Assembly: GCF_000016745.1 (NCBI RefSeq)
Contig: NC_009483.1
Location: forward strand, 3,480,001-3,512,000
DNA: 32,000 nucleotides
Source of the DNA: Geotalea uraniireducens Rf4
GTDB taxonomy: Bacteria; Desulfobacterota; Desulfuromonadia; Geobacterales; Geobacteraceae
Direction: 5' to 3'
The notes beneath the pieces are model-generated. The model saw only the letters and a list, made by a program, of their open reading frames with translations. It searched no databases and was not told the origin of the DNA. The first letter of the stretch is position 1; each line of letters starts with the position of its first letter. A program made the position numbers and the translations under genes. Below, one piece after another: positions 15,127-31,400 of the stretch.

Positions 15127-15378
15127 ATGAAAACCGTTAAACTATCGAGCAAAGGCCAATTCATCCTCCCCAAGGCCATCCGCGACCGGCACCACTGGGA
15201 GGTGGGCACGGAATTCGTCATCATCGACCGGGGAGCGGAACTGGTCATCAAGCCGACCAAGGTCTTCCCGCCGACCGAATTGGAGCCCCCCGACGCCCCA
15301 TCGGTCTACAGGGGCAAGCCGCTCTCACTGGAGGAGATGGAACGGGCCGTCATGGTCGAAGCGGGGAAGCACAAATGA
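15127..15378 (+). CDS. vapB: AbrB/SpoVT-fold (MazE/VapB-type) antitoxin
   Basis: 83 aa. The N-terminal KLSSKGQFILPKAIRDRHHWEVGTEFVI fits the looped-hinge-helix AbrB-type motif. GGAGG lies 8 nt upstream of the ATG. The stop overlaps the next start in ATGA (15375-15378). Confidence 0.85.
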   Translation: MKTVKLSSKGQFILPKAIRDRHHWEVGTEFVIIDRGAELVIKPTKVFPPTELEPPDAPSVYRGKPLSLEEMERAVMVEAGKHK

Positions 15379-15776
15379 TCGCCGTCGACACGAACATCCT
15401 GGTGCGCTACGCGGTGAAGGACGACCGTAACCAGGCGGCGCTGGCAACCGATTTCCTCGCCAGGAACCGCTGTTTCGTCCTCAAGACCGTCCTCATCGAG
15501 CTAGCCTGGGTCCTCTCTTCGTCTGCCGGCTACAATCTCCCCCGGGAAAACGTTCATGAACGATTGCTCCACATTCTCGGCCTGCCGGACATTGAAACGG
15601 AAGATGCCGCCCACGTTGCCCAGGCTCTCACTTGGTACGCGGAAGGGATGGACTTCGCCGATGCCCTCCATCTCGCCGGCAGTGTGGAACTGGCAGGTCT
15701 TGCCACCTTTGACCGTAAATTTGTCGCAACTGCGGAAAAGCTCGACGCCGTTCCCTCGGTACTCCTCGTGCGATAA
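15375..15776 (+). CDS. vapC: PIN-domain ribonuclease toxin
   Basis: 133 aa. It begins MIAVDTNILVRY with the conserved first Asp, and further acidic landmarks are present (ELAWVL, DFADALH, TFDRKF). A 4-nt overlap with the upstream antitoxin gene is typical of vapBC. Confidence 0.9.
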   Translation: MIAVDTNILVRYAVKDDRNQAALATDFLARNRCFVLKTVLIELAWVLSSSAGYNLPRENVHERLLHILGLPDIETEDAAHVAQALTWYAEGMDFADALHLAGSVELAGLATFDRKFVATAEKLDAVPSVLLVR

Positions 15777-15827
15777 GCTCTTCCTTTTTCAATCCTTTCG
15801 AACCGAATTATTTTCTCTCACACTCGG
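15709..15827 (+). repeat. Direct repeat copy A: last 68 nt of vapC plus 51 nt downstream
   Basis: Hand alignment with 24277-24395 gives 119 nt with 8 mismatches and no gaps. Confidence 0.9.
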
Positions 15828-15882
15828 ATTCATTGCTCATTTCTCTCATGTAAAGGACTGACCCTTCTGTCTTTCTCTTGGC

Positions 15883-16887
15883 TTACTCAAGCCCAACATA
15901 TTCTATCTTTTCCAGGTTCTTAAATAAGTTACGCTTTGGGTCATATTCTAGGTTTCTTGTATAGTCTGGATTAAAGTAATATTTGAAAATAATCACAGCT
16001 GTATTTGGGCCTTTGGGATAGAATTTGATGTCTCCATGAATTTTGCCATACATGGCTCGAACTAATTTGCCATCCTTTTCCTCAGATCTAATCCTGAAAA
16101 TATAGTTATTATCGTCTTTAAAACTCTGCTTAACTGGTTCTGTTAGCGATAACTTTCTTGTTGCACTTATTGATTTATTATATCCATCTTCCGGAGCGTA
16201 TCTGGGAAGTTTGAATTCACTTCCAAATCTCCGATTATCCTTTATTAATTGTATTCCATCATATCTATTCGAAAACGTAATGGTTAACTCACTATCATAT
16301 TCATACTCTATTACATAAGTAGGGTGAAACTTGAAATTTTTGTTATTCAGCTTCAATATTAAATCAGAATGAAGACCTTTCCCATATGGCGCTACCCAGT
16401 CATATTCCATCAAATCAAAGCCGACACCAGATGTTATATCAGGTAATTTAATTTCCTTAGACATTTTAGAATCTCTTGCATACATCGGCACAGGGTTTTC
16501 GATTTTTCTCAATACTACATTAACAACTTGATCCCATGGTTGCCACTTGAGGCCCTCTGCCTTTCTAAATTGATATTCACCGTAATACTCGTAATAGCCA
16601 TTTTTGTTAATATGATAACTGACCCCACTCACTGTCTTATGCTTAACCCAACATGCTCCTTTAGCATCAGTCAGTACTCTCACAATATCTTCATTTGTTC
16701 CTTTATCTCTCATTACTGGCTGATCGAATCCAACGGAAATATCGGCCTTTTCAACTGGCGCCCCTTGTTCGTCAACTATATGAAATGATAATTTAGCTTC
16801 CGGTATTATAAAGGCCCACGTATGACTATATGAAATTGCAACGATGCTGATTACAGCAAACAGTGATAGGATTATATTCCTCATCAT
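15883..16887 (-). CDS. Exported protein of unknown function; member of the 4-copy family that follows the hydrolase tips (putative orphan immunity paralogue)
   Basis: The ORF track starts at TTG 16902. I prefer ATG 16887 because GAGGA lies 5 nt upstream (ggcGAGGAatcaaATG). The N-terminus MMRNIILSLFAVISIVAISYSHTWA is signal-like. The 3' ~660 nt are highly similar to 16930-17592. Conserved landmarks shared with 19668-20633 and 24505-25461 are R-K-[IK]-E-x-P, Y-[AV]-P-[EP]-x-G-Y and NP-x-x-x-RN[LV][ED][YF]D. Confidence 0.8.
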   Translation of the reverse strand: MMRNIILSLFAVISIVAISYSHTWAFIIPEAKLSFHIVDEQGAPVEKADISVGFDQPVMRDKGTNEDIVRVLTDAKGACWVKHKTVSGVSYHINKNGYYEYYGEYQFRKAEGLKWQPWDQVVNVVLRKIENPVPMYARDSKMSKEIKLPDITSGVGFDLMEYDWVAPYGKGLHSDLILKLNNKNFKFHPTYVIEYEYDSELTITFSNRYDGIQLIKDNRRFGSEFKLPRYAPEDGYNKSISATRKLSLTEPVKQSFKDDNNYIFRIRSEEKDGKLVRAMYGKIHGDIKFYPKGPNTAVIIFKYYFNPDYTRNLEYDPKRNLFKNLEKIEYVGLE

Positions 16888-16929
16888 TTGATTCCTCGCC
16901 AAGTTGGGAGAAACTGCGGTGTTCGTGAC

Positions 16930-17940
16930 TTACTCAAGCCCAACATATTCTATCTTTTCCAGATTCTTAAATAAGTTACGCTTTGGGTCATATTCCAGAT
17001 TTCTTGTATAGTCTGGATTAAGGTAGTATCTGAATATGATTACTGCCGTATTAAGCCCTTTTGGATTGAACTCAATCTCGCCTTGTATTTTCCCATACAT
17101 AGCCCTGATTAGCTTTCCATCTTTTTCCTCTGATCTGATTCTGAAAATATAATTGTTATCGTCCTTAAAACTCTGTTTAACTGGTTCTTTTAGCGATACT
17201 TTCCTTGTTGCACTCATTGATTTATTATATCCATCTTCCGGGGCATATCTGGGAAGTTTGAACTTGCTTCCAAATCTCCGACTATCCTTTATCAACTGTA
17301 TCCCATCGTATCTATTCGAAAACGTAATGGTCAGCTCACTATCATATTCATAGTCGATTACATAATTTGGGAGAAACTTAAAGTATTTATTGTTCAACTT
17401 GAATATTAAATCAGAATGAATACCTTTACCATACGGCGCTACCCAATCATATTCCATCAAATCAAAGCCGACACCTGATTTCACATCTGCTAAATCAGGT
17501 ATTTGCATTTTTTTAGACATTTTAGAGTCTCTGGCATACATCGGCACTGGATTTTCTATTTTTCTCAATACAACATTAATTATCTGATCCCAAGGTTGCC
17601 AACGATTTCCTTCAATTACTTTAAACTTATATTCACCATAACTTTCATAATAACCCTCTTTATTAGCTTCATATCCAATGTCACGTATTGTTCGGCCTGA
17701 AGCTGTAAATAACCCCTTGGCATCAGTTTCACCTTTAATGGATTCACTATCAATTCCTTGTTCGCCTTTTCTCGGCACTTGAAAGCCCATTTCTATTTTT
17801 ACATTTTTTACTGGCTCGCCTGTTTCATCAACTACACGCAGAGTAATCTTGGCATCAGGAATAGTAAACGCCCATAAACAGCCGCTTATTAGTGCCATCA
17901 TACTTATTGCGAACGATAACGAGATTAATTTTGCTTTCAT
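16930..17940 (-). CDS. Probable lipoprotein, tandem paralogue of 15883-16887 (putative orphan immunity paralogue)
   Basis: ATG at 17940 with GGGAGGA 8 nt upstream (the ORF track's TTG at 17943 is one codon earlier). The N-terminus MKAKLISLSFAISMMALISG/C contains a lipobox-like LISGC. The C-terminal ~215 aa are nearly identical to the neighbouring gene. Confidence 0.8.
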   Translation of the reverse strand: MKAKLISLSFAISMMALISGCLWAFTIPDAKITLRVVDETGEPVKNVKIEMGFQVPRKGEQGIDSESIKGETDAKGLFTASGRTIRDIGYEANKEGYYESYGEYKFKVIEGNRWQPWDQIINVVLRKIENPVPMYARDSKMSKKMQIPDLADVKSGVGFDLMEYDWVAPYGKGIHSDLIFKLNNKYFKFLPNYVIDYEYDSELTITFSNRYDGIQLIKDSRRFGSKFKLPRYAPEDGYNKSMSATRKVSLKEPVKQSFKDDNNYIFRIRSEEKDGKLIRAMYGKIQGEIEFNPKGLNTAVIIFRYYLNPDYTRNLEYDPKRNLFKNLEKIEYVGLE

Positions 17941-18216
17941 CAATTAAGTCCTCCCGAACTTGTAAATTGCTCGAATATTTTATAGATGTATAAGAATGCT
18001 ATTTTTTTGATATCATTGTGAAACCAGTTCTTTGGTGATTTTCTCTCGCTTGGCCACTTGTCCCCTAGCGTTTTGAATCTTGATTGCATGTCAAAATTGT
18101 TTTCAATATCAATACTTATTAGTTTGTTCTTCCCTGCCGCCAATGTCCTGGCAGGGAAAGCTTCCGCAAGCAGACGTGATCTGTTGTTACCGGCAAACTG
18201 ACTACCACCAGCTTCC

Positions 18217-18258
18217 GAAACAACCTTAAGGGGTCAACAAACAACCTTAAGGGGTCAA
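18217..18258. repeat. Tandem 2 x 21-nt REP-like unit ([G/C]AAACAACCTTAAGGGGTCAA)
   Basis: 18217-18237 and 18238-18258 differ only at the first base. The second copy overlaps the left inverted repeat of the RayT-like unit. The 13-mer CTTAAGGGGTCAA recurs at 24470-24482. Confidence 0.75.
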
Positions 18259-19290
18259 AGCTCCAAATATCAAATTTTCAGGATCGCTTTCACTTTCTCC
18301 ACCTCTGCACACAACTTTTTATCTTGAACCAACTTCCTCGAAAGTAGACGGCGCGCTTCTGCTATTGCGGTTTCACCTACGCCGAACAGATTGCCGATTT
18401 CACGTAGTTTCTTTCCGCTGTACTTATGGCAGAGATACATTCCCACCTGCCGCGCCTGCTTTTCTTTTTCCCCCACTACTGCCGCTACTGCCTTCAATAT
18501 CTCTTCCGGCTCCGGGTTTGACTTAAATTGCCGGATTCCTGGGACAGCTCTGTCTACACCTTTCTCCGAGAGATGTTCTGATGTCACCATTTCTATAAAT
18601 TCCGCCGTGCCGAGTACTGCTGCGCCAAATGTGTTCTGGAAGGGGCTGTCGTATTCCTTCCCAAGCAAGTCTTCCACAAATGTTCGATACTTCTTCATTG
18701 CTTCTTTTGTCTTTTTGCCGAAATAGTCGAGGATTGTCTCCATCTTCAGCCACGTGGGCGCGGTTCCTTGACCGATGTAGTTGTTGTAGCTGGACCAGCG
18801 GTATTCCTCTGGACGCGTAACCATTCCCGCCCTTACCGGGTTTAAATGTATATATCGTGATAGTTCCATCGCATATTCGTCTAATTCAACCAGTATCGCC
18901 TTGTATCGCCCCTGAAAAAGATGCCCTGACCTTTTCCGCTTGATGTTGAAATATGTCGTGTATGCTCCGTTTATGTGCCGCATGATCTGTGACAGATTGC
19001 CTACCGGCGTTTCCAGGAGCAGATGATAATGATTGCTCATCAGGCAATAGGCATGAACTACTCCCCCGTATCGCTCTGTTGCCGATTCCAGATACTCCAG
19101 AAACTTTTGTCGGTCTCTTTGGCTTTTGAATACGTCCTTTTGCTCGTTACCTCTTGATGTGACATGGTAAAATGCTCCTGGATATTCGATTCGTAGCGGT
19201 CGTGCCATGGCGTTCTCCTTTGACTGATAAGTTATTCCTTTATCATCGCAAAGTTTACCATGCTTTTTGATTTTTGGAGACTTGACCCTT
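18249..19290 (-). mobile_element. RayT-like (REPtron-like) unit 1: Y1 transposase gene bounded by imperfect inverted repeats
   Basis: The left end is AAGGGGTCAAAGCTCCAA (18249-18266) and the right end is TTGGAGACTTGACCCTT (19274-19290). About 15 of 18 positions are complementary. I saw no flanking target-site duplication. Total length is 1042 bp. Confidence 0.6.
18270..19208 (-). CDS. IS200/RayT-like Y1 (HUH) tyrosine transposase fused to a DnaA-C-terminal-like HTH
   Basis: Start taken at ATG 19208 with AAGGAG upstream. It is homologous from residue 1 to 23223-24173 (MARPLRIEYPGAFYHVTSRGNEQKDVF). The HUH motif is NHYHLLLE and the Tyr motif is RYIHLNPVRAG. The C-terminal YLCHKYSGKKLREIGNLFGVGETAIAEARRLL is DnaA-domain-IV-like. 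Confidence 0.85.
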   Translation of the reverse strand: MARPLRIEYPGAFYHVTSRGNEQKDVFKSQRDRQKFLEYLESATERYGGVVHAYCLMSNHYHLLLETPVGNLSQIMRHINGAYTTYFNIKRKRSGHLFQGRYKAILVELDEYAMELSRYIHLNPVRAGMVTRPEEYRWSSYNNYIGQGTAPTWLKMETILDYFGKKTKEAMKKYRTFVEDLLGKEYDSPFQNTFGAAVLGTAEFIEMVTSEHLSEKGVDRAVPGIRQFKSNPEPEEILKAVAAVVGEKEKQARQVGMYLCHKYSGKKLREIGNLFGVGETAIAEARRLLSRKLVQDKKLCAEVEKVKAILKI

Positions 19291-19302
19291 TTATTTTCTT
19301 TT

Positions 19303-19620
19303 ATTCGGGTCGAAACCTTCAGGCAGCGGTATGGAGATCTTGACCTCCTTCCGGACATTGATACCGCCGGTGTCCACATTCACTGCTCCGAGATACTTGC
19401 CTCTTGCCGGCACCGGATGTGGAAGTTCCGCCTCTGTAACCGGCGTAATCCTGATAACGGTAGGCCCGACCAGCGCACCTTCAGGGATTTCGAGGAGCAC
19501 ACCCCCGTCACCTTCCACCTTGCCCCCCTTGGCGGTGACAAGGTAGCTGTCGTCCGAACCCTTGAAGGTGGGGTACGAGATGGTGGTCTGGTTGCCGGAG
19601 TAGTCCAGCAGGACTACTGC
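19303..19620 (-). pseudogene. Relic internal fragment of a third giant-protein gene (ZU5-like segment)
   Basis: Encodes ...LLDYSGNQTTISYPTFKGSDDSYLVTAKGGKVEGDGGVLLEIPEGALVGPTVIRITPVTEAELPHPVPARGKYLGAVNVDTGGINVRKEVKISIPLPEGFDP. This parallels IMDNSGNQTLVSYLTFKSDDGNYLVTAKGGKVEGEGGSILDIPEGAL...LSMPLPDGFDP of the gene at about 30170-30490. Homology stops at both ends and no start or scaffold is present. Confidence 0.8.
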
Positions 19621-19667
19621 CAAAAAAATGAGTCAGTGAACAAATAAACAACGTCGCACCCCCTTCT

Positions 19668-20633
19668 CTATTGTGGCTTCGTCCCCATTCTTTCCGCTGA
19701 TGCATTTTTATTTGCTAGGTACGCCCTGTATTTATCACCATCGAAATCAAGATTCCTTTCACCCAAGGGGTTTGTCCATACTTCTGCTTTAAAAAATACC
19801 TCGCCATTTTGGTTGACAAATTTGATATCTAGATTTGAGTATATCCCACCACCCCTGCTCTTTATGTAGAGATAGGTTTTAAACATCTGACCATTGGTCA
19901 CCTTAACTTTATAAATATTTTTGTAACCGGTCTCTGGTGGCACATAGAGCATCTGGTCAAGAGCAATAATGCCGCTATCGGCATCAGGTGTTTCCAAGAT
20001 AAAGTTATAGGCATCTTCTGCGGAAATGTACTCTACTCGGGCCTTAAGGTCAGCATGTGCATTATCGCTGTGATACCTCTTAAGATAGTATGGTGCTCCA
20101 TCAACCATATCGACAAGATCAACCTCGTAGTATTTTACATCTTTTTTAAAAACTACAGATATGTCACCAGGGATGACAACCGTTGGGGGTTCTTTCTTGC
20201 GCATGGTGAATACTACAGGATTGTTTCTGTCAATAACTGTGCTGCCATCATTTTCATATTCATCATGACCTTTAGCTCGGTTAATCCTCAAATAGTCATA
20301 ACCAGAGGCAGTTATTTTATTAACCAACAGACCGCTTCCATTGATCGCGGAAACTTCAAAAATGCCTTGATTATCAGTTGACAACACAATTTCCTTTACA
20401 CCGACTGCTTGGATAATTTGGATAGAAACCTGTGCGCTAATTACGGGCAGATTGTTATTATCCAATACCTTTCCGTAGTATAAAATGGGTTTGTCAAGTG
20501 ATTTTAATACATTTGATATTGTAGTTTGTTTATCTATTTTACTTAGATCATCTGCAAAATTACACTTTGTAAAAACAGCCAGTCCTGCAACAAACACAAT
20601 AGTAACAATTAATATTTTATTTTTCACAATCAC
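19668..20633 (-). CDS. Signal/anchor-bearing protein immediately downstream of the orphan hydrolase tip (putative cognate immunity protein)
   Basis: 321 aa. The GTG at 20633 overlaps the AAGGGAG RBS, so GTG at 20627 (5-nt spacing) is an alternative start. The N-terminus is hydrophobic (KILIVTIVFVAGLAVFTKC), followed by a CarboxypepD_reg-like segment (ILYYGKVLDNNNLPVISAQVSIQI...TDNQGIFEVSAINGSGLLV). It is homologous along its whole length to 24505-25461. Confidence 0.8.
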   Translation of the reverse strand: MIVKNKILIVTIVFVAGLAVFTKCNFADDLSKIDKQTTISNVLKSLDKPILYYGKVLDNNNLPVISAQVSIQIIQAVGVKEIVLSTDNQGIFEVSAINGSGLLVNKITASGYDYLRINRAKGHDEYENDGSTVIDRNNPVVFTMRKKEPPTVVIPGDISVVFKKDVKYYEVDLVDMVDGAPYYLKRYHSDNAHADLKARVEYISAEDAYNFILETPDADSGIIALDQMLYVPPETGYKNIYKVKVTNGQMFKTYLYIKSRGGGIYSNLDIKFVNQNGEVFFKAEVWTNPLGERNLDFDGDKYRAYLANKNASAERMGTKPQ

Positions 20634-20640
20634 TCCCTTA

Positions 20641-23196
20641 TTAGTATGATGATGTCAATCTAAAATCTGACATGATTGCTTTCCAATAGCCTTTTTCTTG
20701 TATTATAGTTGATCTGAACTGTCTGCTATGAGAGTAATGCTTCGTATCGTAATCAAATAATACTTTAAGGTCTTTATTATTATCATTATAAAAATTATTG
20801 ATGGCAGAAGAAACTGCACCTATGGCTTTAGCTCGTGATTGTATAATTCTGCTGAATACTTCATATCTATCATCCGGCAGATATAATGGGAGAAGGCCAT
20901 TTAAGTGTATTGAACCAAGTGGAACGTAACTGTATGGAAAGTCAGGACGTGTCAAACTATTGAGTTCCCAAGCTGCATACCCCTCATCTCCTCTGCTCAA
21001 GGCAAAATCTAATCTATTAAAATAGTTAATGTGTTTTGCTTTTTGTGTACTTGAAGATAGGTATGGCTTATCTGAGGAGGTTTCGTTACCAGACATATAA
21101 TATCCAAAGATGTTAGCTGTAATAACAGTACCTGGAATCTTGGCTGCAAGGCTTTTCTCTGTTATCGTATTGTCATAATAATGCGCCGACAAGGCCGCCT
21201 GTGTAGCAATATAGGTATGGACTATTCCTGGCCCCGGCAATTTATTGATGGTTTCTCCTGATACGATACCACCCATACTATGACCGAGTAGCCGTATCTT
21301 GCCCTGATATTTCGTCATATCTCCGCTTAAGAGCAAATTTTTAAATGCTTCTGAGGAATTCCATGCCCTTATCTCACTTTCGTCGAAAGTAAGTGCACCT
21401 TCCAATGTCGGCCAACTAAACAAACCAACTTTTCCGGTATACCCTGACCACCAGAGCCGCTTGAACATAGTCTCGGCCCAACGCTCCTTCTCCACTTCTC
21501 CGTTCGTCATGTTCCAGCCATGAACATAGAAAATGTAGTCATTGTTTTTGGGCTGATAATCTCCCTTTCTGGTTGTGTAGGATGTCAACACTCTCTTGGC
21601 GAGATCATCATAAGCAACCTGATATTTGTCATAAAACCAAGTAATCGGTTTCAGGTCCAATTTTGCTGAATTTTCCTCAATGTCGACCCCATCCGATTTG
21701 AGACTAATAGTCAGATCACCTGTACCTGATGATTTACCTTCGAAAATGAAATGCGACGCCCCTGTACCCATCAGTACGTTAGCAGGTAAATCAGAGACAT
21801 TAACTGAATCAATCGTGACAATTCGTTTGTTATACAACTGTAGCAGGGCTGTCTTGTATTCACTTAGATATTTTGTACCATCTGTCACCGCCTCAAAAAG
21901 ATTTAGTGATGGATTTGTGCCATTAACGTTTTTGAATTGCAGTTGATATGAGAAAACCGGCGGCGGCGTATCGTGTGGCGCAGTAAGAAACTTGATGACA
22001 TTACGTGCATGTTCGTCTATCTGTATGTGAACTTGTGCAAAATCTTCCAAGTCGCGCAACGTATTAATTTGGTCAACTTCAGTGTCATTTGCGTCTGATG
22101 CACTTGAATATATATCATCATCAAAAAGACCAACTTCGGCATTTCTCACGTCTGGCCCGGTATCATGATCATCATTCACCCAGAAAGTATATTTCTTGTC
22201 TTCAGGATCATCGAATCTGATCTTCCCATCCCTATTTCCATCAAAGGCAATCCTGATCAGCTTCTCAAGCGGAATATTTTTGCGCCTCATCAACCTGCCG
22301 TCTTTGCGGTTGCTGAATTCAAAAATCGCCTTGGTCCCGATACTGCCAAAAACTGGCGCGATTGCCATCCCATCCACGGTGGTCAGTGTCAAATCGGCAG
22401 CCGGGAAGTTGGTGGCTATAAAGCGTTTGTTTGTCGGAGACGTTATTGTTTTTTTCAAGTCGGCATAGCAGTGCTCGTCACTTCCTTTGCGGAAAGACAG
22501 CAGATACTGCGTCGGGTGGTCTATACCGGGAAGAGGGTTGACAACAGCACCCTTGCGCGTTTTGATTACCATGCTACCTACCAGGTCGTCATCATTACAG
22601 TTGATATCCGGATCCTCGTACTTTACCTCGACGTAGTAGCGACGGTCATCCTCTCCGCCCTTACTGTATCCTATCTCGGGAACCTGAATATTGCTCTCAT
22701 TGTATACTCTTATGTCGTTGGTGTTAATACCCATTGTGCGCATACCTTTGGTCTGGTCCGCCATGTACAGCCAGCCGTCTTTTTCCGCCATGGCCGGGAT
22801 GGTGCCTATGGGAATCATCGCCGGGGATCCTTCCGGTGTTGTAGCGCCGGATGAGTTGGGCAGTTGGGTGATGGTGTTGATCAGCCGGGGATTTTTTGGG
22901 TCTTTCACATCCACTACCTGAATGGCGCTCAAGGTACTGACGATTGCCAGCCCCGTCTCTTTGTTCAAGGTTATATCGTAGGGATAGGAGACAACCTCTT
23001 TATCCAGGGCATCTTTGACCGTTGCCAGCGGTTGGGGGTTGTAGGGGTCGGTAAGGTCAACGGTCTTGAGTCGGCCGCCACCGCCGGTGAGGGCCAGGTC
23101 CATGCTCTGCGGGTTGCCGTCGGCATCGGCATAGCTGTAGTCGGACACACCCGCCACACGCAAGGCGTTCAGCTTTTTGGGCTCGATCACTCCCAT
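20641..23196 (-). CDS. 5'-truncated orphan copy of the 3' third of the giant gene at 25465-32000, ending in a diverged DUF900-like alpha/beta-hydrolase; possibly silent
   Basis: Homology to the full-length gene begins exactly at 23199 (QMGVIEPKKLNALRVAG...). The first in-frame ATG is at 23196, with no visible RBS. The 21 extra N-terminal residues in the ORF track (TTG 23259) are read from inside the transposase unit and overlap the transposase stop. Confidence 0.7.
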   Translation of the reverse strand: MGVIEPKKLNALRVAGVSDYSYADADGNPQSMDLALTGGGGRLKTVDLTDPYNPQPLATVKDALDKEVVSYPYDITLNKETGLAIVSTLSAIQVVDVKDPKNPRLINTITQLPNSSGATTPEGSPAMIPIGTIPAMAEKDGWLYMADQTKGMRTMGINTNDIRVYNESNIQVPEIGYSKGGEDDRRYYVEVKYEDPDINCNDDDLVGSMVIKTRKGAVVNPLPGIDHPTQYLLSFRKGSDEHCYADLKKTITSPTNKRFIATNFPAADLTLTTVDGMAIAPVFGSIGTKAIFEFSNRKDGRLMRRKNIPLEKLIRIAFDGNRDGKIRFDDPEDKKYTFWVNDDHDTGPDVRNAEVGLFDDDIYSSASDANDTEVDQINTLRDLEDFAQVHIQIDEHARNVIKFLTAPHDTPPPVFSYQLQFKNVNGTNPSLNLFEAVTDGTKYLSEYKTALLQLYNKRIVTIDSVNVSDLPANVLMGTGASHFIFEGKSSGTGDLTISLKSDGVDIEENSAKLDLKPITWFYDKYQVAYDDLAKRVLTSYTTRKGDYQPKNNDYIFYVHGWNMTNGEVEKERWAETMFKRLWWSGYTGKVGLFSWPTLEGALTFDESEIRAWNSSEAFKNLLLSGDMTKYQGKIRLLGHSMGGIVSGETINKLPGPGIVHTYIATQAALSAHYYDNTITEKSLAAKIPGTVITANIFGYYMSGNETSSDKPYLSSSTQKAKHINYFNRLDFALSRGDEGYAAWELNSLTRPDFPYSYVPLGSIHLNGLLPLYLPDDRYEVFSRIIQSRAKAIGAVSSAINNFYNDNNKDLKVLFDYDTKHYSHSRQFRSTIIQEKGYWKAIMSDFRLTSSY
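20644..21545 (-). other. Alpha/beta-hydrolase (DUF900-like) tip, orphan allele
   Basis: Landmarks are YVHGWNM, FSWPTLEG, FDESEIRAWNSSEA, GHSMGG (21268-21285), INYFNRLDFAL and KHYSHSRQFRS. Confidence 0.6.
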
Positions 23197-23199
23197 CTG
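22390..23199 (-). repeat. 810-bp block identical to 27361-28170 (recombination handle, orphan copy)
   Basis: Line-by-line comparison at a constant offset of 4971 nt found no mismatch. Identity ends abruptly at 23199/23200. On the other side it decays to roughly 80-85% over 22170-22389 and drops lower beyond that. Confidence 0.9.
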
Positions 23200-23210
23200 A
23201 GAAAAACTAG

Positions 23211-24252
23211 AGGGGTCAGGTCTCAACTTCTGACATACCCTAAATTTGCCTCTACCCAATCTACCATCTTCTTCACTTGTTGATCTTTCTCGGCCTTTAA
23301 TGCCAGCCTCCGGCTTGCCTGCGATACCGCCGCATCGCTTATTCCAAAACGTTCACCTATTTCCTTAAGCTTTGCTCCGCTATACTTCTGACAGCAATAA
23401 ATGCTCATATTTCTTATCAACTCGTCTCTTTCGCCGAGCACCGCATTGATTTCCTTTATGATTTCATCCATCGAAGGCCGGGTTGCCAGTTCCTTCACAG
23501 CCGGAACGCTCCGCTCTGCCCGTCTCTCTCCCAGATGCCTTTCCGATATTTCTCTTACAAATTCTTCACTTCCTAATACTGTCGAGGCTACCGTTGCTTT
23601 CAATGGGCTGTCGTATTCACTATCGAGAAGGTCTTCGACAAATTTCCGATACTTGTTTTTCACATCCGGTGCTTTCGTGCCAAAATAGCCGAGTATGAAT
23701 TCCGTCTTCAGCCAATCGGTCGCCTTGTTGTCTTGACCTATGTAACTTCGATAGCTGGACCACTGATATCCCTCCGGCTTAGCAACTATTCCCGCCCGTA
23801 CCGGATTCAGATGAATGTACCGTGAAAGCTCTGTCGCATATTCATCTGCTTCGACGAGTATCGCCTTGTATCGCCCCTGGAACAGATGACCGGCTCTCTT
23901 CCGCTTGACGTTGAAGTACGTTGTATATGCACCGTTTACATGCCGCATGATCTGCGAAAGGTTCCCGGATGGTGTTTCCAGCAGCAGGTGGTAATGGTTG
24001 CCCATCAGGCAGTAGGCATGGATTAACGCCCCGTACCGCTTTGTTGCCGATTCCAGATATTCCAGAAACTTTTCCCGATCCTTTTGACTCTTGAATACGT
24101 CCTTCTGTTCGTTTCCTCTCGACGTGACATGGTAAAATGCTCCAGGATATTCGATTCTTAAAGGCCGTGCCATCGCTTCCTCCTTTGATTGTTTTGGACT
24201 TTCTCAAACATATCAAAGAAGTTCTACCTGTCAAGAATTGAGACCTGACCCC
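23211..24252 (-). mobile_element. RayT-like (REPtron-like) unit 2: Y1 transposase gene bounded by perfect 16-bp inverted repeats
   Basis: AGGGGTCAGGTCTCAA (23211-23226) is the exact reverse complement of TTGAGACCTGACCCCT (24237-24252). Length is 1042 bp. I saw no target-site duplication. The left repeat overlaps the transposase stop codon. Confidence 0.7.
23223..24173 (-). CDS. IS200/RayT-like Y1 (HUH) tyrosine transposase fused to a DnaA-C-terminal-like HTH
   Basis: 316 aa, with ATG 24173 preceded by AAGGAGG. The HUH motif is NHYHLLLE and the Tyr motif is RYIHLNPVRAG. The C-terminal YCCQKYSGAKLKEIGERFGISDAAVSQASRRL is HTH-like. By eye it is roughly three-quarters identical to 18270-19208. 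Confidence 0.88.
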   Translation of the reverse strand: MARPLRIEYPGAFYHVTSRGNEQKDVFKSQKDREKFLEYLESATKRYGALIHAYCLMGNHYHLLLETPSGNLSQIMRHVNGAYTTYFNVKRKRAGHLFQGRYKAILVEADEYATELSRYIHLNPVRAGIVAKPEGYQWSSYRSYIGQDNKATDWLKTEFILGYFGTKAPDVKNKYRKFVEDLLDSEYDSPLKATVASTVLGSEEFVREISERHLGERRAERSVPAVKELATRPSMDEIIKEINAVLGERDELIRNMSIYCCQKYSGAKLKEIGERFGISDAAVSQASRRLALKAEKDQQVKKMVDWVEANLGYVRS

Positions 24253-24276
24253 TTTGGTTGCCCTCCTTTGGTTGCC

Positions 24277-24344
24277 CTTGACCGTAAATTTGCCGCAACC
24301 GCGGAAAAGCTCGACGCCGTTCCCTCGGTAATCCTCGTGCAATA
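24277..24344 (+). pseudogene. vapC 3'-terminal remnant (last ~22 codons only)
   Basis: Encodes ..DRKFAATAEKLDAVPSVILVQ*, compared with ..DRKFVATAEKLDAVPSVLLVR* for the intact vapC. No upstream PIN coding sequence is present. Confidence 0.85.
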
Positions 24345-24395
24345 AGCTCTTCCTTTTTCAATCCTTTCGAACTAAATCATTTTCTCTCGCACTCG
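24277..24395 (+). repeat. Direct repeat copy B of the vapC 3' end plus downstream sequence
   Basis: 111 of 119 nt are identical to 15709-15827, in the same orientation. The two copies bracket 8449 bp (15828-24276). Confidence 0.9.
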
Positions 24396-24456
24396 GCTGA
24401 GCGGATCGAGCTGGAAGTTAAACCGTTCAGAAATGCACTTAGAATGTGAATTCACC

Positions 24457-24494
24457 GCTTAAGAGAAAGCTTAAGGGGTCAAAGAAAGCTTAAG
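24457..24494. repeat. REP-like cluster: three GCTTAAG cores, AGAAAGCTTAAG x2, containing CTTAAGGGGTCAA
   Basis: GCTTAAG occurs at 24457, 24469 and 24488. AGAAAGCTTAAG occurs at 24464-24475 and 24483-24494 (period 19). The 13-mer CTTAAGGGGTCAA (24470-24482) is identical to the two copies at 18225-18237 and 18246-18258. Confidence 0.6.
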
Positions 24495-24504
24495 TGTACC
24501 TCTA

Positions 24505-25461
24505 CTATTTCTTTATCGTTGAAAATGTTTCAGTTTCCGCGTTCTTTTTATCCAAATACTGGCCATATAATTCTCCATCATAATCAACATTCCTTTCGCC
24601 GTTCGGATTCGTCCAACCTTTGACGACCATGACAGCTTTTTCTTTCGTTGCCTTAAAAGTAGTATCCAGCCTTGAATAAATCTGACCAGCACGACCTTTA
24701 ATGTATAAATACTTCTTCACCTTGGTATTTATTGGGACTGTGATTTGGAAAGTTTTCTGATATCCGCTTGCAGGTGGCACGTACAACATCTCGTCAAGAG
24801 CAATAATGCCGCTGTTTGCATCCTGTTCTTCAACAGTGATGGTATACGAAGAATCCGCTTCGGAATAAACTGCCTTGGCCCTCAGATCGATATGTAAGTT
24901 TTTGCTTTCGTAATTTTCTAAATACCCTTTCTCTCTTCCATCAAGTTTTACAAGATCAATTTCGTAATAAGGAATATTTTTTGTGAATACAATTGAAAAT
25001 TCTTCATTTAATACCAATGTTGGCGGTTCCTTTTTGCGAACGGTGTAAGTTACGGGGCTATCTTTCTTTGCCACGAATGAGCCGTCATTTTCAAAAGATG
25101 TTTCAGCTGTATCTACTGATTTATCATATTCATAACCTCGATTTTTAATATCAACTATCAAAATAGAGTTACCTTTAATGTTGCTGACTTCGAATCTTCC
25201 ACCGCTATCTGTCTTAATACCAAATTCCGCTATGCCATTAGAACTTCTCACATGGACAATCACATCAATGCCTTCAACAGGCGTGTTGAGATGATCAACC
25301 ACCCTACCATAGAAAAGAATGGGCTTGTCCATGGAGAGCAGTTCAAGATCTGCTCTATTGGCTTTATCTGCTTCGGTTAAATTCTGCGCGTGATTGCACT
25401 TTGAAGTAACAACCAAGACGCCTATTGTTAACAACACTACGAGAGGAATCAGTTTATTCAT
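24505..25461 (-). CDS. Signal/anchor-bearing protein immediately downstream of the full-length hydrolase tip (putative cognate immunity protein)
   Basis: 318 aa. The ATG at 25461 lies 3 nt after the upstream stop, and its AAGGAG RBS sits inside the last codons of the upstream gene. The N-terminus is MNKLIPLVVLLTIGVLVVTSKC, followed by a CarboxypepD_reg-like segment (ILFYGRVVDHLNTPVEGIDVIVHV...TDSGGRFEVSNIKGNSILIV). Confidence 0.85.
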   Translation of the reverse strand: MNKLIPLVVLLTIGVLVVTSKCNHAQNLTEADKANRADLELLSMDKPILFYGRVVDHLNTPVEGIDVIVHVRSSNGIAEFGIKTDSGGRFEVSNIKGNSILIVDIKNRGYEYDKSVDTAETSFENDGSFVAKKDSPVTYTVRKKEPPTLVLNEEFSIVFTKNIPYYEIDLVKLDGREKGYLENYESKNLHIDLRAKAVYSEADSSYTITVEEQDANSGIIALDEMLYVPPASGYQKTFQITVPINTKVKKYLYIKGRAGQIYSRLDTTFKATKEKAVMVVKGWTNPNGERNVDYDGELYGQYLDKKNAETETFSTIKK

Positions 25462-25464
25462 TTG

Positions 25465-28400
25465 CTACTCCTTTTCTATTGAGCTTTTTAGTTCAAAATC
25501 ACTAAAGATTGCTTTCCAGTATCCCTGCTCGTCAACAATATTTGAACGAAACTCCTTACTGTGAGAATAATGTTTGTCGTCATAACCAAACTTTTTAAGG
25601 TTTCGGCTCTTTTCAAATCCCTTAAGTGGCGTTTTGCTCGTCGCCCCCAATGCCTTGACCCGAGACTGAATTATTCTGCTGAATATCTCATAACGGTCAG
25701 CGGGAAATTTAAGCAGACTTGGCATGCTTAATCCGTCGTTCGAAATCCCCAATCTCACATAATAGTTGCTTCCGCCATCGATTGAATTCAGCAACGAGCT
25801 TATTATGCCTGGAATTGTCGGAAGCGGATCAAGCAACGTAAAACAAGCTACTGCTAGTCCGTTGCAATACAGGTAACCAGGATCGGGTCTGAACTTGGTA
25901 TTGAATTCCCACGCCATGAAACCACGTTCTCCGGCTGTCAAAGCATAGTCCACTTCGTTAAAATAATTGATGAACTTTGCCTTGCCGGTTGAATCTGCCA
26001 AATAGGTGGCATCTTGTGAGCCACTATTGCCTGAGTAGTAGTACCCAAATACATTCGGAGTTACCGGCAACAGAGGCAGACGCCGGCTACTCTCCGTCAC
26101 ACTATTGTCGTAGAAATGTGACGAAAGCGCTGCCTGTGTGGGAATGTACGTTTTAACGATGCCGGGACCCGACAGCTTCTGAATGGCCTCACCTGAAACT
26201 ATTCCTCCCATGCTATGCCCAAGCAACCTGATGTTTCCAGCATAATCCCTGAGCTTTATTTCAAGTACATCTTTTAGTGCTTCAGAAGAATTCCATGCCC
26301 TCAATTCGCTTCTGTCAAAGGTAGTACCTCTTGGAATGTCATAAGGTTTTTCAAGGGTAGGCCAACTGAACGATCCTACACGCCCTGTATACCCCTGCCA
26401 CCAAAGCCGTTTATAGATTGTTTCGGCCCACCGATCTTTCTCGATTTCACCTTGCATGTTCCAGCCGTGAACGAACAGGAGGTAATCTTTGTCTTTCGCT
26501 GGATATTCGCTTTTTTTGATCTCGCTGACCTGCGATCCGACTGTTTTGCTTCCCTCGTCATATGTGACCCTGAATTTGTCATAGAATGTCTGAATTGGCT
26601 TTAACTCCAGAAGCGCTGAATTTTCTTCTAAAGTATCGCCATCCGCCTTGAGGATAAAGGTGAGTTCTCCTTTGCCAAAGTTTCGCCCTTCAAAAATATA
26701 CGGCGACGTTTTATCCGTCGATATATAGGAGGGGGCGAGTTCTGATTCAGTAGATGAGATAGTAAGAAGCTTTGGTTTATCCAACTGCTTTCGTGCAGAA
26801 TTTTCATTCCACAAATATTTTTCAGTTTCACCAACAGCCTGGAAAATATTTATCTCAGGGGATGTACCGTTGGTATTATTGAACTTGAGATAATAACCGA
26901 AGCTCTTAGGTTGTGTCGTCTGATTTGATAATATCTCCATTACCTTCCTTGCGTGAGGATGAAGTTGCATTTGGACACGGGCAAAATCTTCAAGATCTCT
27001 CAGCGTTTTTATCTTGTCACCGTTTTCACGAACACAATCCTTAACTGTTCCGCTAATATTATCATCTTCTACTGGATAAGTAATTTTTGAGCCTTGGTTG
27101 ATGTCAGTATATTCGGTTTCATAACCATTGACATCATTATCATCATTCACCCAGAAGGTGTATTTCCTGTCCTCGGGGTTTTTAAAATCAATCACCCCAT
27201 CCCTATTTCCATCAAAGGCAATCCTGATCAGCTTCTCAAGCGGTATACTCTTGCGCCTCATGAGTCTCCCCTCTTTGCGACTGCTGAACTCGAATATCGC
27301 CTTTGTACCGATACTGCCGAAGACTGGCGCTATCGTCATCCCGTCTGGTGTGGTCAATTTCAAATCGGCAGCCGGGAAGTTGGTGGCTATAAAGCGTTTG
27401 TTTGTCGGAGACGTTATTGTTTTTTTCAAGTCGGCATAGCAGTGCTCGTCACTTCCTTTGCGGAAAGACAGCAGATACTGCGTCGGGTGGTCTATACCGG
27501 GAAGAGGGTTGACAACAGCACCCTTGCGCGTTTTGATTACCATGCTACCTACCAGGTCGTCATCATTACAGTTGATATCCGGATCCTCGTACTTTACCTC
27601 GACGTAGTAGCGACGGTCATCCTCTCCGCCCTTACTGTATCCTATCTCGGGAACCTGAATATTGCTCTCATTGTATACTCTTATGTCGTTGGTGTTAATA
27701 CCCATTGTGCGCATACCTTTGGTCTGGTCCGCCATGTACAGCCAGCCGTCTTTTTCCGCCATGGCCGGGATGGTGCCTATGGGAATCATCGCCGGGGATC
27801 CTTCCGGTGTTGTAGCGCCGGATGAGTTGGGCAGTTGGGTGATGGTGTTGATCAGCCGGGGATTTTTTGGGTCTTTCACATCCACTACCTGAATGGCGCT
27901 CAAGGTACTGACGATTGCCAGCCCCGTCTCTTTGTTCAAGGTTATATCGTAGGGATAGGAGACAACCTCTTTATCCAGGGCATCTTTGACCGTTGCCAGC
28001 GGTTGGGGGTTGTAGGGGTCGGTAAGGTCAACGGTCTTGAGTCGGCCGCCACCGCCGGTGAGGGCCAGGTCCATGCTCTGCGGGTTGCCGTCGGCATCGG
28101 CATAGCTGTAGTCGGACACACCCGCCACACGCAAGGCGTTCAGCTTTTTGGGCTCGATCACTCCCATCTGGACCGGCGTGGGGTTGTTGATATCCAGGGT
28201 TATCAGATAACCAGCGGTGGTGGTGAGGAGAGCCTTACCCGTTCCGTAGACCGCAATGTCGTTGGGCGAACCGTATCCCTGGCCGATACTGTCGAAGACA
28301 CCCACAATACTTGGGTTGTCTGCCGAGAAGCCGTCATAGCTGTCCTTGGCCTTACTGATGCTGACCACCTGCAGCGCCGCCGCAGCCGTGGCAATGTAGG

Positions 28401-31400
28401 CATATTCGCCGGCAAGGGCCAATCGGCCGGGTATCCCGGAATAGGCTTCGGCCAGCCGCTGTTTACCGATGATGGCCGGGTTTACCGGGTCGGTTTTGAT
28501 GTCGTAGAAGCGGATATAACCGTACTGGTTGCCGTCGCCGAAGACGATGTTCTCGGTCATGGCCATTATCCCGGCCGTTGGTGCGGGATGGACGGCGACT
28601 CCGCGGTAGCTCCAGCTGACGGCGGGGGCGCTCATGCTTTTACTGTAGACCACGGAGGGGTTGGTCGGATCGCTGACGTCGGCGACATGCCACCCCTGGT
28701 CGTCGGCGGCGATGTAGGCGTAGCTGTTGCCGTCATAGTGGTTGTACAGGGCGATGTCGCGCCCCCCCTTGAACTGTTCGGCTTCGGCCAGGTCATAGGC
28801 GGCGGGGCGTTTGGTGGTGAAAGTGCTCTGGTATCCCTGGGCCAGGGGCAAGAAGGCATTGTCGGCCGAGGGGTTGGGGTTGATGTCTACGATGCCTCCG
28901 GCGGGCAGTACCAGCACCTGTACCTGGTACTGCCGGTCGTAGGAGAGGTTGCCCCGTGGTGTGAGCACGGCCTGCATCCGGCCTCCTTCATATGAGGTGG
29001 TGATGATGGCCGGCATCGCCCGTCCGTTGCTGGTATCGATCAGTTTGAAGGTGGCCGGGGTGACGTTTTCCACCGGTTCGCTGAACCAGGCGGTGATCTG
29101 GGTGGTGACTGGGAGGTCCTTGGCGCCATCGGCTGGGGCGATGCTGTCCACGGTGGGGGCGCCGTCAACGCCGCCAGGTATGGCGCCGACCGCCACGACC
29201 CGCAGTTGGAGGGTCTTGGTGCTCTTGTTGGTGCTGGTGTCGGTGGCTTCGACCGTGAAGCGGTAGTTGCCGGCCAGGCCCGGCTTGCAGTTCGTGTCCT
29301 GGCTCCCCTGCAGTTCGGCGGGAAAGACCGCTTTGAAGGTATAGCGCCAGATGGCCGGCTTGTCGGCGGTGGGTGGGGATGAAAGTACCGCGCCCAGCCG
29401 GATAAGGGGTGCGGAGTATGACTGCCAGGTGGTCGCCTCCGGGCTCTTGTATTCCACCGTCAGAGTGGGGTTGACACTCGATTGGTCGCTGATGAACAGC
29501 GGCAGCTGCACTTCCGTCCCCAGCGGCATGGTGCCGGAGCTGATCCGGTTGGTCGGGGCTTGTCCGGGTGCCACCTGCATCGTCAGGTCGATGACCGGCG
29601 CGGTTTTGTCCGGCGGGATGGAGTTTTTGTCCGCCAGCATGAAGTTCAGGTTGGTGATCAGGTCGTGATCGACATCCATGAAGAGGGTGTGGCTTGTGCG
29701 GCGCATTGTCAGGGGGTGGATGGCGGTTATCCGGTAATCCAGCTGCATTGCCACGACGTAGGCATACAGGGTAGCGAACCCGGCATAAAAACCGCTGCTG
29801 TTTGAGTAGCTGACATAATCCCAGGCATCCGGGGTCCGGATGACGGCCCCCTTGATGGGACGGTCGTATTTGTAGACCGGGTTGCCGGAGGCATCGAAGG
29901 TTGGTATCTCGATAACTCCATACGGTGGCGGCTGATAGCCGGTCTGGTCGTTCATCTTCTGGTAGGTATAGCCGGAGACGATGCCTTTTTTCATTCCGCC
30001 GAAGGAGATGAAGGCAAAGGAGCCGATCTGGACGATGCCGGTGAATGGGGGGCTGGCGGTGGTGATACGGTTGTTGATTACCTTGGTGCTGTCGATGATT
30101 TCGTAGACCTTTTCTATGGTGCCGTCGGCGTTATAGATCTCGCTCGGGCGGTTGACAAAGACAGGGGTTGTGGGATCGAAGCCGTCCGGCAGCGGCATGG
30201 AGAGATGGACCTCCTTCTGGAAGTCGATCCCGCCGGTGTCGATATTGAATGCGGAGAGATACGTGCCCGGTGCCGGTACCGGACTTGCCAGGCTGGCTTC
30301 CGGCACAAAGGTCAGTTTGACAATCGTCGGCCCCGACAAAGCGCCTTCGGGGATATCGAGGATGCTCCCCCCCTCTCCTTCGACCTTGCCACCCTTGGCG
30401 GTGACCAGGTAGTTGCCGTCATCGCTTTTGAAGGTGAGGTACGAGACGAGCGTTTGATTCCCAGAGTTATCCATGATGACGATCTTTATCTCGTCGCCCA
30501 GTTGGCCTCTGACCTTGCCGGTAAAGGAGCCGTTGCCGGCCGGAACCACGGAAACTATCTCGCCGCTGGTGTCGTTGATGATGAGCACCGTACAGTCGGC
30601 AGGGGAGCTCCCTTGGGTGGCGGTGATGCTGATGAACCCATCAGCATCGGGAAAGCTCGCGGTGATGCTCCCTGCCGGCGGCATGGGAGGCGGAGTGGTG
30701 TTGCGGATGGTAAAGCCGGAGGTGACATCCTGGCCAAGGGGATATCCCTGGAGATCCTTGATCGTCCCGGCTATGGTGATGGTGTAACTCTGCTGCGACT
30801 TGAGCAGATCTGCCGGGGTGAAGGTGACGACCTTGCCGTCAACGCTGAAGGTGAATACACCGGGGACAGCCGTTCCGGCTGAGTCGAGGAGTTTGAGAGT
30901 TTGGGAGTTTATGGAGCTTTGATCCATGCTTTTGGAGAAGGTAATCACCACCGGCACGTTTGGCTGAATATTGATGCCCGTCGGCGACACTGAAACAACC
31001 GTCGGCAAGATCATCAGGATTTTGAGGTCAATGATTATTGCCTGGTTGGCCGCTATTGCGCCGGTAGCGCTCCCTTCGTCGTTCTTGTATAGATCCGTTG
31101 CAGTCGCGGTGACTGCGGCAACAGGCGCTGCCACAAGATATTTCCCGGTGGCTGCGGAAAGATCGATGAGCGAACCGTTGTCCGTCTTCACCAAAGCACC
31201 GTTGAAGGGGGCGTTGCTGGAATCGGTGACCGTGCCGGTGGCAAAGCCGATCTGCCCCTTGGCCTGGAGGAAGTAATAAACTCCGGAGGAGTTTATTGAG
31301 TTTGATGAGTTCAATGAGTTCTGGAGTTGGGAAGTTAACGGCTCTGTGGTGATGAAGGAGCCGTTCTGTCTGGCCAGGGCCACGAGCTTCAGCTTCTGAA

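Follow-up and report, generated by a model that had tools for sequence, protein, structure and literature searches.

A stretch of 32,000 nucleotides from Geotalea uraniireducens Rf4 (NC_009483.1, positions 3,480,001 to 3,512,000), from here on called the window, carries two units that are very probably TIRtrons. A TIRtron is an element of roughly 1.04 kb that resembles an insertion sequence (IS). It consists of one gene for a TIRYT protein, placed between terminal inverted repeats (TIRs) that here have the core GGGGTCAGGTCT; its mechanism is something we infer. The class itself has been named before and is essentially uncharacterised, and the window units belong to it.

The terms TIRtron and TIRYT were coined by Di Nocera, De Gregorio and Rocco in 2013 (BMC Genomics 14:522, PMC3733652) for RayT-like genes that are flanked by TIRs. 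They reported the repeat motif GGGGWSAS and a constant distance to the gene, with TIRs that are single, dimeric or clustered in some genomes. Quentin et al. 2018 (BMC Genomics 19:475, PMC6006769) placed 20 of 26 TIRYT examples in TnpA_REP subclass 2.1. Their group 2.1.2 has a tail that is Bac_DnaA_C-like or of the HTH_23/28 type, and a motif unlike the DnaA box; in the words of the authors, “further analyses are necessary”. These two papers alone contain the term ‘TIRYT’ in a search of full texts, and no follow-up was found.

What is added here is how widespread and constant the ends are, evidence for movement of the whole unit, a duplication signature of 7 nt and a link to rearrangements of a toxin locus. 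The window is a clean example, with two intact lineages side by side that have sharp ends and lie on gene-truncation breakpoints of such a locus. An earlier sequence-only reading of the window had described two diverged RayT-like genes, each within a unit bounded by inverted repeats.

The two units and their ends

TIRtron 2 is found on the minus strand at 23205-24259. Its 3’ TIR (23205-23235) holds the core AGGGGTCAGGTCTCAA at 23211-23226, and its 5’ TIR (24229-24259) holds the core TTGAGACCTGACCCCT at 24238-24253. Both arms are 31 nt long and 84% complementary, with 16 matches out of 16 in the core TTGAGACCTGACCCCT. GGGG is at 23212-23215 and CCCC at 24249-24252. TIRtron 1, also on the minus strand, occupies 18249-19291, with GGGG at 18251-18254 and CCC at 19286-19288. 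Its arms are 26 nt long and match at 22 of 26 positions (85%). The 3’ TIR (18249-18274) reads AAGGGGTCAAAGCTCCAAATATCAAA, and the 5’ TIR (19266-19291) reads AAAGGGTCAAGTCTCCAAAAATCAAA as its reverse complement.

When compared with 500 shuffles, the arms have z-scores of 10.3 for unit 2 and 8.1 for unit 1, and no shuffle reached the score of either unit. The inverted termini of a single motif family, perfect over 16 positions in unit 2, had been noticed in the sequence-only reading and are confirmed by this. The unit size of about 1042 bp given there is also close: measured from GGGG to CCCC, unit 1 is 1038 nt long (18251-19288) and unit 2 is 1041 nt long (23212-24252). A DNA alignment of unit 1 with unit 2 shows similarity from AAAGGGGTCA to TGACCCCT, and the flanks are unrelated.

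The ends stand out within the window. With up to 2 mismatches, GGGGTCARGTCTC occurs 6 times where 1.3 times is expected, and 4 of these 6 sites are the unit ends. The sequence CTTAAGGGGTCAA has three exact copies, at 18225, 18246 and 24470, two of which belong to the end of unit 1 that is duplicated in tandem. Both ends of unit 2 read GGGGTCAG, an instance of GGGGWSAS, while the unit 1 ends GGGGTCAA and AGGGTCAA deviate from that motif at 1-2 positions. The distance to the gene is nearly fixed: the 5’ GGGG is found 79-81 nt before the ATG, and the 3’ repeat begins within the stop codon or 4 nt past it. This spacing matches that of the closest homologues.

No target-site duplication is present at unit 1, at unit 2 or at the homologous unit on L002, a 242-kb metagenome contig, and no direct repeat brackets either window unit. 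This agrees with the sequence-only reading, which saw no target duplications.

That reading had also suggested predicting hairpins of single-stranded DNA (ssDNA) at the unit ends. Both strands of the four window ends were folded, and with z-scores from -0.7 to +0.5 versus shuffles there is no hairpin of significant stability at any of them. A GTAG head is absent from these ends as well. Folding is confined to the outer flank of unit 1, which is duplicated in tandem (z of about -3), and it is due to the palindrome CCTTAAGG. Many TIRs of the family contain a GTCA...TGAC pairing. It is lost without compensation in the variants CATTCAACA and CAATCAACA, and it is therefore read as a protein site or a -35 box and not as a hairpin. 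Since single ends lack an ssDNA hairpin, they are plain TIRs, and not repetitive extragenic palindromes (REPs).

The two proteins

The gene for TIRYT-1 (18270-19208, minus strand) encodes 312 aa and that for TIRYT-2 (23223-24173, minus strand) 316 aa. Both are intact, and both proteins combine a Y1/HUH domain with a C-terminal DNA-binding domain that resembles DnaA domain IV. TIRYT-1 starts at the ATG at 19208 (MARPLRIEYPG), as it does in all homologues. A 369-aa open reading frame (ORF) from 19379 was considered for TIRYT-1 and is spurious; it runs through the repeat. Over their full length, the two proteins are 63% identical with 78% positives, and the “about three-quarters” identity of the sequence-only reading was too high. 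TIRYT-2 has a ribosome-binding site, AAAGGAG, 7 nt 5’ of its ATG, and its stop codon TGA falls within the 3’ repeat of unit 2.

Both proteins have the HUH motif NHYHLLLETP and the sequence SRYIHLNPVRAG with the catalytic Tyr119, as had been read from the sequence, and both motifs are invariant in an alignment of 35 sequences. Across these 35 family members, down to 38% identity, the invariant residues are NHYH at 59-62 (with His60 and His62), Tyr119 and W138-S139-S140.

Profile searches place the proteins with RayT. Pfam Y1_Tnp matches the two with E-values of 1e-13 and 1e-14. The NCBIfam model REP_Tyr_transpos scores 84 and 85 bits, where its cut-off is 80, and no IS200 TnpA model in NCBIfam matched either protein at E <= 0.01. 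A family profile searched against the PDB matches E. coli TnpA_REP (4er8) over residues 38-144 with an E-value of 0.004, and no IS608 or ISDra2 chain at E <= 1. Over residues 222-310 the same profile matches DnaA domain IV (2hcb 4e-6, 3pvp 2e-5, 1j1v 7e-4). The profile is needed here: a PDB search with a single TIRYT sequence gave nothing significant, and Pfam Bac_DnaA_C is a weak, sub-threshold match in single-sequence scans.

The predicted structure points the same way. The AlphaFold model of the TIRYT is moderate (pLDDT 64), with two terminal domains at 75-89. In Foldseek, the top PDB match of this model is 4er8 (E 4.6e-6, TMt 0.64), followed by the TnpA proteins of ISDra2, IS200 and IS608. 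The C-terminal domain of the model matches the DNA-binding domain of DnaA (3pvp/1j1v) with a TMt of 0.74. Profile and fold together thus bear out the DnaA-like helix-turn-helix (HTH) tail that had been proposed from the sequence. The placement with RayT and not with IS200 stands as well, given that the REP_Tyr_transpos cut-off is passed, no IS200 model matches, and 4er8 is the best relative by profile and by fold.

Upstream of TIRYT-2 there is a candidate sigma-70-like promoter (24207-24234, minus strand), the best such site in 18100-24600. It reads TTGACA-16-TATGTT with an extended TG and agrees with the consensus at 10 of 12 positions, which is a match to consensus only. The -35 box TTGACA is within the 5’ repeat of unit 2, and TTGACA is also a conserved inner stretch of many TIRs of the family. 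Rfam (E <= 0.1, 17900-24700) and PHROGs gave no match.

Conservation and relocation of the unit

The protein family is very large, with at least 7,999 of 8,000 scored candidates significant. The best 120 relatives among the scored candidates are 65-90% identical and about 315 aa long. In species-representative genomes, scanned without the source genome, 548 of 600 candidate stretches encode relatives; the best match there (79%) is in a metagenome-assembled genome (MAG) of a Geobacter sp. The hosts of the relatives include Geobacterales, Desulfuromonadales, Nitrospirota, Gammaproteobacteria, bacteria of the candidate phyla radiation (CPR) and one archaeal MAG.

The ends are conserved along with the protein. 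For 52 homologous loci with enough flank, the upstream flank was aligned to the reverse complement of the downstream flank. A flanking inverted repeat with z > 5 is present in 47 of them, with the consensus GGGGTCAGGTCTtgA. Nearly all 47 have the core GGGGTCAGGTCT in common, and this end sequence stays constant even at about 40% protein identity. The consensus for the family is GGGGTCAGGTCTtgAaat.t.AcA, where the information content jumps at the first G (G1). Variant types of the repeat are GGTCTCAA, GGTCTAC, GGTCTTG and GGTCCGG. The sequence-only reading had allowed that the ends might be fortuitous and not conserved; since the repeats are kept at homologues across phyla, this does not hold.

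Homology between loci ends where the repeats end. Unit 2 is 87% identical to L002, which has other neighbours, over 23208-24255, and nothing outside is similar. The homology of L005 and L006 to unit 2 likewise ends at the repeats. Unit 1 shares 75-79% identity with L013 and L014, which have different contexts, and there too the limits are the repeats. For more than a dozen other pairs of loci in unrelated neighbourhoods, only the sequence from GGGG to CCCC can be aligned. Altogether, more than 15 independent pairs with unrelated flanks have these limits of homology.

Some genomes have more than one copy. The isolate Geotalea sp. SG265 (L009, NZ_JAKZFT010000027.1) contains two that are 98.9% identical (106-1183 and 2395-3478), in direct orientation and 1.2 kb apart. 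One Nitrospirota MAG (L031, L032) has two copies with 88.6% identity and different flanks. From the homology limits at GGGG and CCCC and from these near-identical copies it follows that the unit is a discrete DNA segment, which has undergone copying and relocation. Geotalea sp. SG265 is culturable, which makes it a good candidate for experiments. The 3’ end of its second TIRtron also shows three tandem copies of a 19-nt unit of ‘flank + GACCC’.

The two window copies have a longer history. Because each is closer to elements of other genomes than to the other copy (87% to L002 for unit 2, 75-79% to L013 and L014 for unit 1), they are old paralogues. The sequence comparisons indicate that they are old, independently acquired lineages. 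That they are not products of a recent transposition had been suspected before, and this holds up.

Copies without a gene

The exact 16-mer of unit 2 was found in at least 120 metagenome contigs. In a terabase-scale collection such hits could be due to chance. This was ruled out by what comes next to them: in 63 of 94 listed instances CATTTGACA follows with up to 2 mismatches, which makes them genuine ends of the family.

The listed instances come in four arrangements, which are full units, short doublets, intermediates and single copies. In full units, the partner repeat is 1007-1148 nt away, and there is an ORF of roughly 320 aa for a protein with identity down to 36%. At least 18 short repeat-repeat doublets measure 27-176 nt and would form hairpins. 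Internally deleted copies of about 200-650 nt retain both end regions. In distant clades (L056, L060, L078, L079), each flank of the gene is itself a doublet.

Perfect or nearly perfect palindromes are seen in L101, L153, L147, L162, L087 and L090. They consist of two back-to-back TIRs with spacers of 0-40 nt, for example AGGGGTCAGGTCTCAAttgaatcaaTTGAGACCTGACCCCA. These palindromes are REPIN-like hairpins of the TIRtron family.

Within the 32-kb window there is one additional, degenerate end relic (24463-24500) beside the four ends. A look-up of the exact proteins returned only Logan contigs of 1.2 kb that end at the toxin and vapC duplications described below. One of these, L001 (Logan SRR9436595, 1202 nt), equals window positions 23170-24371 and comes from a short-read assembly of the same strain. 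Its two ends are at the duplications of toxin and vapC and not at the TIRs; on the toxin side it overlaps 28141-28170 by 30 nt. Unit 2 is present at 100% identity in the reads SRR9436595 and SRR29904083. Since the SRR9436595 assembly is unbroken at the TIRs, unit 2 is not a high-copy repeat in that sample.

Duplicated flanks and a putative joining point

Short tandem duplications are found on one side of each unit. At the outer edge of the 3’ TIR of unit 1 (18218-18258), AAACAACCTTAAGGGGTCAA occurs twice with a period of 21 nt and 100% identity. The outer copy consists of the flank plus only the first 8 nt of the unit 1 repeat. At unit 2, between its 5’ TIR and a remnant of vapC, the 14-nt sequence CCTTTGGTTGCCCT is perfectly duplicated in tandem (24251-24278). 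This duplication sits between the place where homology to L002 ends (24255) and the place where homology to vapC starts (24275).

The relic at 24463-24500 has the same layout with no gene attached: GAGAAAGCTTAAGGGGTCAA is followed by AGAAAGCTTAAGTGTACCTCTAC with a period of 19 nt, that is, flank + GGGGTCA and then flank + a degenerate repeat. It is probably a decayed TIRtron end.

Across the family-wide set (L005-L204), such a tandem ‘flank + repeat start’ was counted when a 13-mer, made up of six flank and seven repeat nucleotides, is repeated up to 60 nt outside the TIR. This is the case for 65 of 488 repeat instances (13.3%), and for 0.6% of 20,787 positions drawn at random from these sequences. 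The duplicated stretch of flank is 5-14 nt long. The length of the copied part of the repeat peaks at 7 nt (GGGGTCA), with 26 cases; copies of 8 and 9 nt are as frequent as expected from chance extension. These duplications hint that joining may take place 7 nt into the repeat, between GGGGTCA and GGTCT. Duplications of 7 nt of a partial repeat are not described in Di Nocera 2013 (PMC3733652).

The toxin locus

The neighbours of the two units are genes for very large Big_5/LVIVD proteins with a C-terminal alpha/beta-hydrolase domain of the DUF900 type, each followed by genes of 318-339 aa that have no Pfam match. The full surface-protein/toxin gene, with Big_5, LVIVD and DUF900 hydrolase domains, is at 25465-31911. 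The locus is laid out like a polymorphic-toxin system that includes an orphan C-terminal module.

Both units lie at breakpoints in this locus. Downstream of unit 2 is an ORF of 872 codons that contains the last about 850 codons of a toxin gene (20641-23199, minus strand). In a self-BLAST, 22162-23199 is a 95.9% copy of 27133-28170, and the ORF is therefore a 5’-truncated orphan copy of a toxin. The homology begins 6 nt from the 3’ arm of unit 2, or 13 nt from the GGGG at 23212. At the other end of this unit is the vapC (PIN) remnant (24275-24396, plus strand), which comprises the last about 70 nt of the gene and downstream DNA and is cut 15 nt from the 5’ repeat. It is 92.6% identical to 15706-15827. 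Next to unit 1 there is a fragment from the N-terminal third of a toxin-type gene (19303-19623, minus strand), truncated on its 3’ side about 15 nt from the 5’ repeat; 19307-19580 is 73.6% identical to 30172-30446. The sequence-only reading placed both units exactly at module junctions of the toxin locus, and indeed the self-BLAST homologies stop at 6 nt and at about 15 nt from the repeats.

An intact pair of a MazE/AbrB-type antitoxin and a PIN (VapC) toxin is present at 15127-15776 on the plus strand, between immunity-like genes and a gene of 4761 aa. The intact arrangement that served as a model is an immunity-like gene, then convergent vapC-mazE, then the next toxin gene. Measured against this, unit 2 would occupy the place of most of vapC, of mazE and of about 1,290 codons of a second toxin gene. 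The most likely history is insertion into a variable region, followed by an element-adjacent deletion or by recombination between copies. Such an event may have left behind the orphan C-terminal module of the toxin and the N-terminal fragment.

Some further features of the region can be listed. Past the 96% stretch, the C-terminal regions of DUF900 type diverge, and each is followed by its own gene of 318-321 aa. Tandem domain repeats, visible at the DNA level, are found within the 3’ part of the 4761-aa gene; they are about 490-640 nt long and 93-97% identical (852-1344, 1962-2454 and 2910-3397; 1811-2452 with 2759-3397). The adjacent genes of 339 aa and 337 aa (15876-16545 and 16923-17601), which have no Pfam match, share 85% DNA identity. 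Intact vapC contains CAGGTCTTGC at 15693-15708, a 10-nt match to the common TIR variant GGGGTCAGGTCTTGC, just upstream of where the truncated copy of vapC starts. This may be a pseudo-site or chance. Reading the vapC and toxin breakpoints as pseudo-sites of TIRYT was considered, since vapC is cut beside ...CGGTCA and its intact copy has CAGGTCTTGC. This is suggestive, but it is within chance and is not claimed.

Proposed mechanism and alternatives

A mechanism can be proposed for how these parts might work together. The HTH domain would bind the repeat as a duplex, which could be double-stranded DNA or, at a replication fork, the stem formed in ssDNA by the paired inverted ends. The HUH motif and Tyr119 would nick one strand per end and rejoin it through a 5’-phosphotyrosine intermediate. 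In this way the DNA between the repeats would move without target-site duplication, much like REPIN/RayT and the ‘peel-and-paste’ of IS200/IS605. Joining would take place after nucleotide 7 of the repeat, as the recurrent ‘flank + GGGGTCA’ duplications on the same side suggest. The 5’ repeat would also supply the -35 box of a likely promoter, so that binding of the protein would regulate its own expression.

Put at its most specific, the proposal is that TIRYTs cut and rejoin after GGGGTCA, with the duplex-binding DnaA-like domain positioning a single-strand HUH nuclease, that side-reactions, namely flank duplications on the same side and deletions next to the element, created the orphan C-terminal module, the toxin fragment and the vapC remnant, and that TIRtrons drive the turnover of cassettes in polymorphic toxin loci. 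In this full form it is speculative, and we consider it unlikely to be right in its entirety. If true, cutting and rejoining in this way would be a mode of transposition that has not been described for any Y1 enzyme.

Several things weigh against the reading of the units as TIRtrons that work by the mechanism above. No biochemical or genetic data were found in the literature for any TIRYT, and every mechanistic step is therefore an inference. The general view of RayT relatives is that they have been domesticated, are present in one copy and pass from parent to offspring (PMC5581495). With only 63% identity between the window copies and no identical copy in view, the units can be called active in this genome at present only tentatively. 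Residues 109-229 of the TIRYT are poorly modelled. With inverted ends, the strands that a Y1 enzyme uses at the two ends have to be opposite ones, and we know of no characterised IS200/IS605-type Y1 enzyme for which this has been demonstrated. The 14-nt duplication at the 5’ end of unit 2 copies 2 nt of the repeat and not 7. Finally, 10-16 nt between each repeat and the truncated gene are assigned to neither of the two, and the deletion scenario is plausible in outline, but not base by base.

The main rival explanation is that the two TIRYTs are domesticated, immobile host genes of RayT type, that the repeats are operator or seeding sites which serve to control the gene and to spread short repeat doublets, and that the position at junctions is coincidental or due to recombination at the repeats and not to transposition. 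There is something to be said for this. Genes of the RayT type behave like housekeeping genes, being single-copy, vertically inherited and rarely found on plasmids (PMC5581495). The window copies are old at 63% amino acid identity, the 5’ repeat overlaps a promoter-like site, gene-less short doublets of the same repeat exist, and the unit is found in synteny in L079 and L084. Immobile genes would however not be expected to recur as whole units with 75-88% identity in unrelated neighbourhoods, with homology that ends at GGGG and CCCC. Nor do they fit well with 98.9%-identical copies in one isolate genome, or with internally deleted copies that keep both ends. Disfavoured by this evidence on boundaries and copies, domestication is improbable, although it retains some probability for this genome.

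It is far less probable still that these are ordinary insertion sequences of the IS200/IS605 family whose inverted termini are incidental. Pfam does put the N-terminal domain in Y1_Tnp, the fold matches to TnpA of IS608, ISDra2 and IS200 nearly equal that to TnpA_REP, and target duplications are lacking in both. But the inverted-repeat ends are conserved across phyla, and there is no subterminal hairpin and no tnpB. A TIRYT is also more than twice the size of TnpA_IS200 and has an extra DNA-binding domain, and it scores above the cut-off of REP_Tyr_transpos while matching no IS200 model. As for the inverted repeats having arisen by chance, or as a side effect of the local duplications of the toxin locus, the region is indeed full of duplications and the repeat of unit 1 is imperfect (22/26). 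This explanation is nevertheless already refuted and retains next to no probability: at z = 8-10 no shuffle reached the observed score, and in 47 of 52 unrelated loci the same motif flanks the gene with the same spacing.

If TIRtrons are active, they would break assemblies and truncate genes in environmental Desulfuromonadota without being annotated as the cause. They would also provide a natural system for studying an HUH nuclease that works with inverted ends. In evolutionary terms, they may form a step between autonomous IS200-like elements and the relationship of RayT with REPINs.

Comparison with known systems

With IS200/IS605 elements such as IS608 and ISDra2, the window units share the HUH/Y1 fold, a single gene, a length of about 1 kb and the absence of target duplication, and a mechanism based on single-stranded DNA is likely for them too. 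The ends of IS200/IS605 elements, however, are asymmetric, with subterminal hairpins and no inverted repeats. Their TnpA proteins are dimeric and 130-150 aa long, whereas the TIRYTs have 312 and 316 aa with an extra domain. IS200/IS605 elements also have defined tetra- or pentanucleotide targets, and often a tnpB gene.

The sequence-only reading had compared the units to REPtrons. The relationship stands: the catalytic domain of E. coli TnpA_REP (4ER8) is the closest solved relative. REPtrons, including the RAYTs of Pseudomonas, also have inverted flanks of a short motif, gene-less hairpin doublets elsewhere and no target duplication. The likeness does not extend to the ends, and the structure already had the name TIRtron. 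REPs are individually palindromic hairpins of 20-40 nt with a GTAG or similar head, and the window ends are unfolded and without GTAG. The TIRYT has about 315 aa and a DNA-binding domain, compared to about 165 aa, and in TIRtrons the whole unit with its gene appears to move.

The C-terminal 80-90 residues of the TIRYT resemble DnaA domain IV (1J1V, 3PVP), with a profile E-value of 4e-6 and a TMt of 0.74. There is no AAA+ module. The repeat GGGGTCAGGTCT is unlike the DnaA box TTATNCACA, in line with PMC6006769, and the specificity of the TIRYT tail must therefore differ from that of DnaA.

Within TnpA_REP, group 2.1.2 has the same long Y1 protein, Bac_DnaA_C-like HTH and serine motif after the tyrosine (WSSY here). 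Subclass 2.1 also has no REP beside the gene, and its authors equate it with TIRYT. Domain architecture and repeat motif thus suggest an assignment of the window proteins to 2.1.2.

From the TIRtrons of PMC3733652 the window units differ in nothing essential. The repeats of unit 1 are off at 1-2 positions (GGGGTCAA, AGGGTCAA), and the Geobacterales-like hosts seen here are, to judge by the text, absent from the 26 published examples. The 2013 description came without sharp unit boundaries or a link to gene truncations. What is shared is a RayT-like Y1 gene framed by TIRs instead of REP hairpins, a fixed distance between repeat and coding sequence, a 3’ repeat that overlaps the end of the gene, a motif that fits GGGGWSAS (GGGGTCAG), and repeats that in some genomes also occur as single copies, dimers and clusters.

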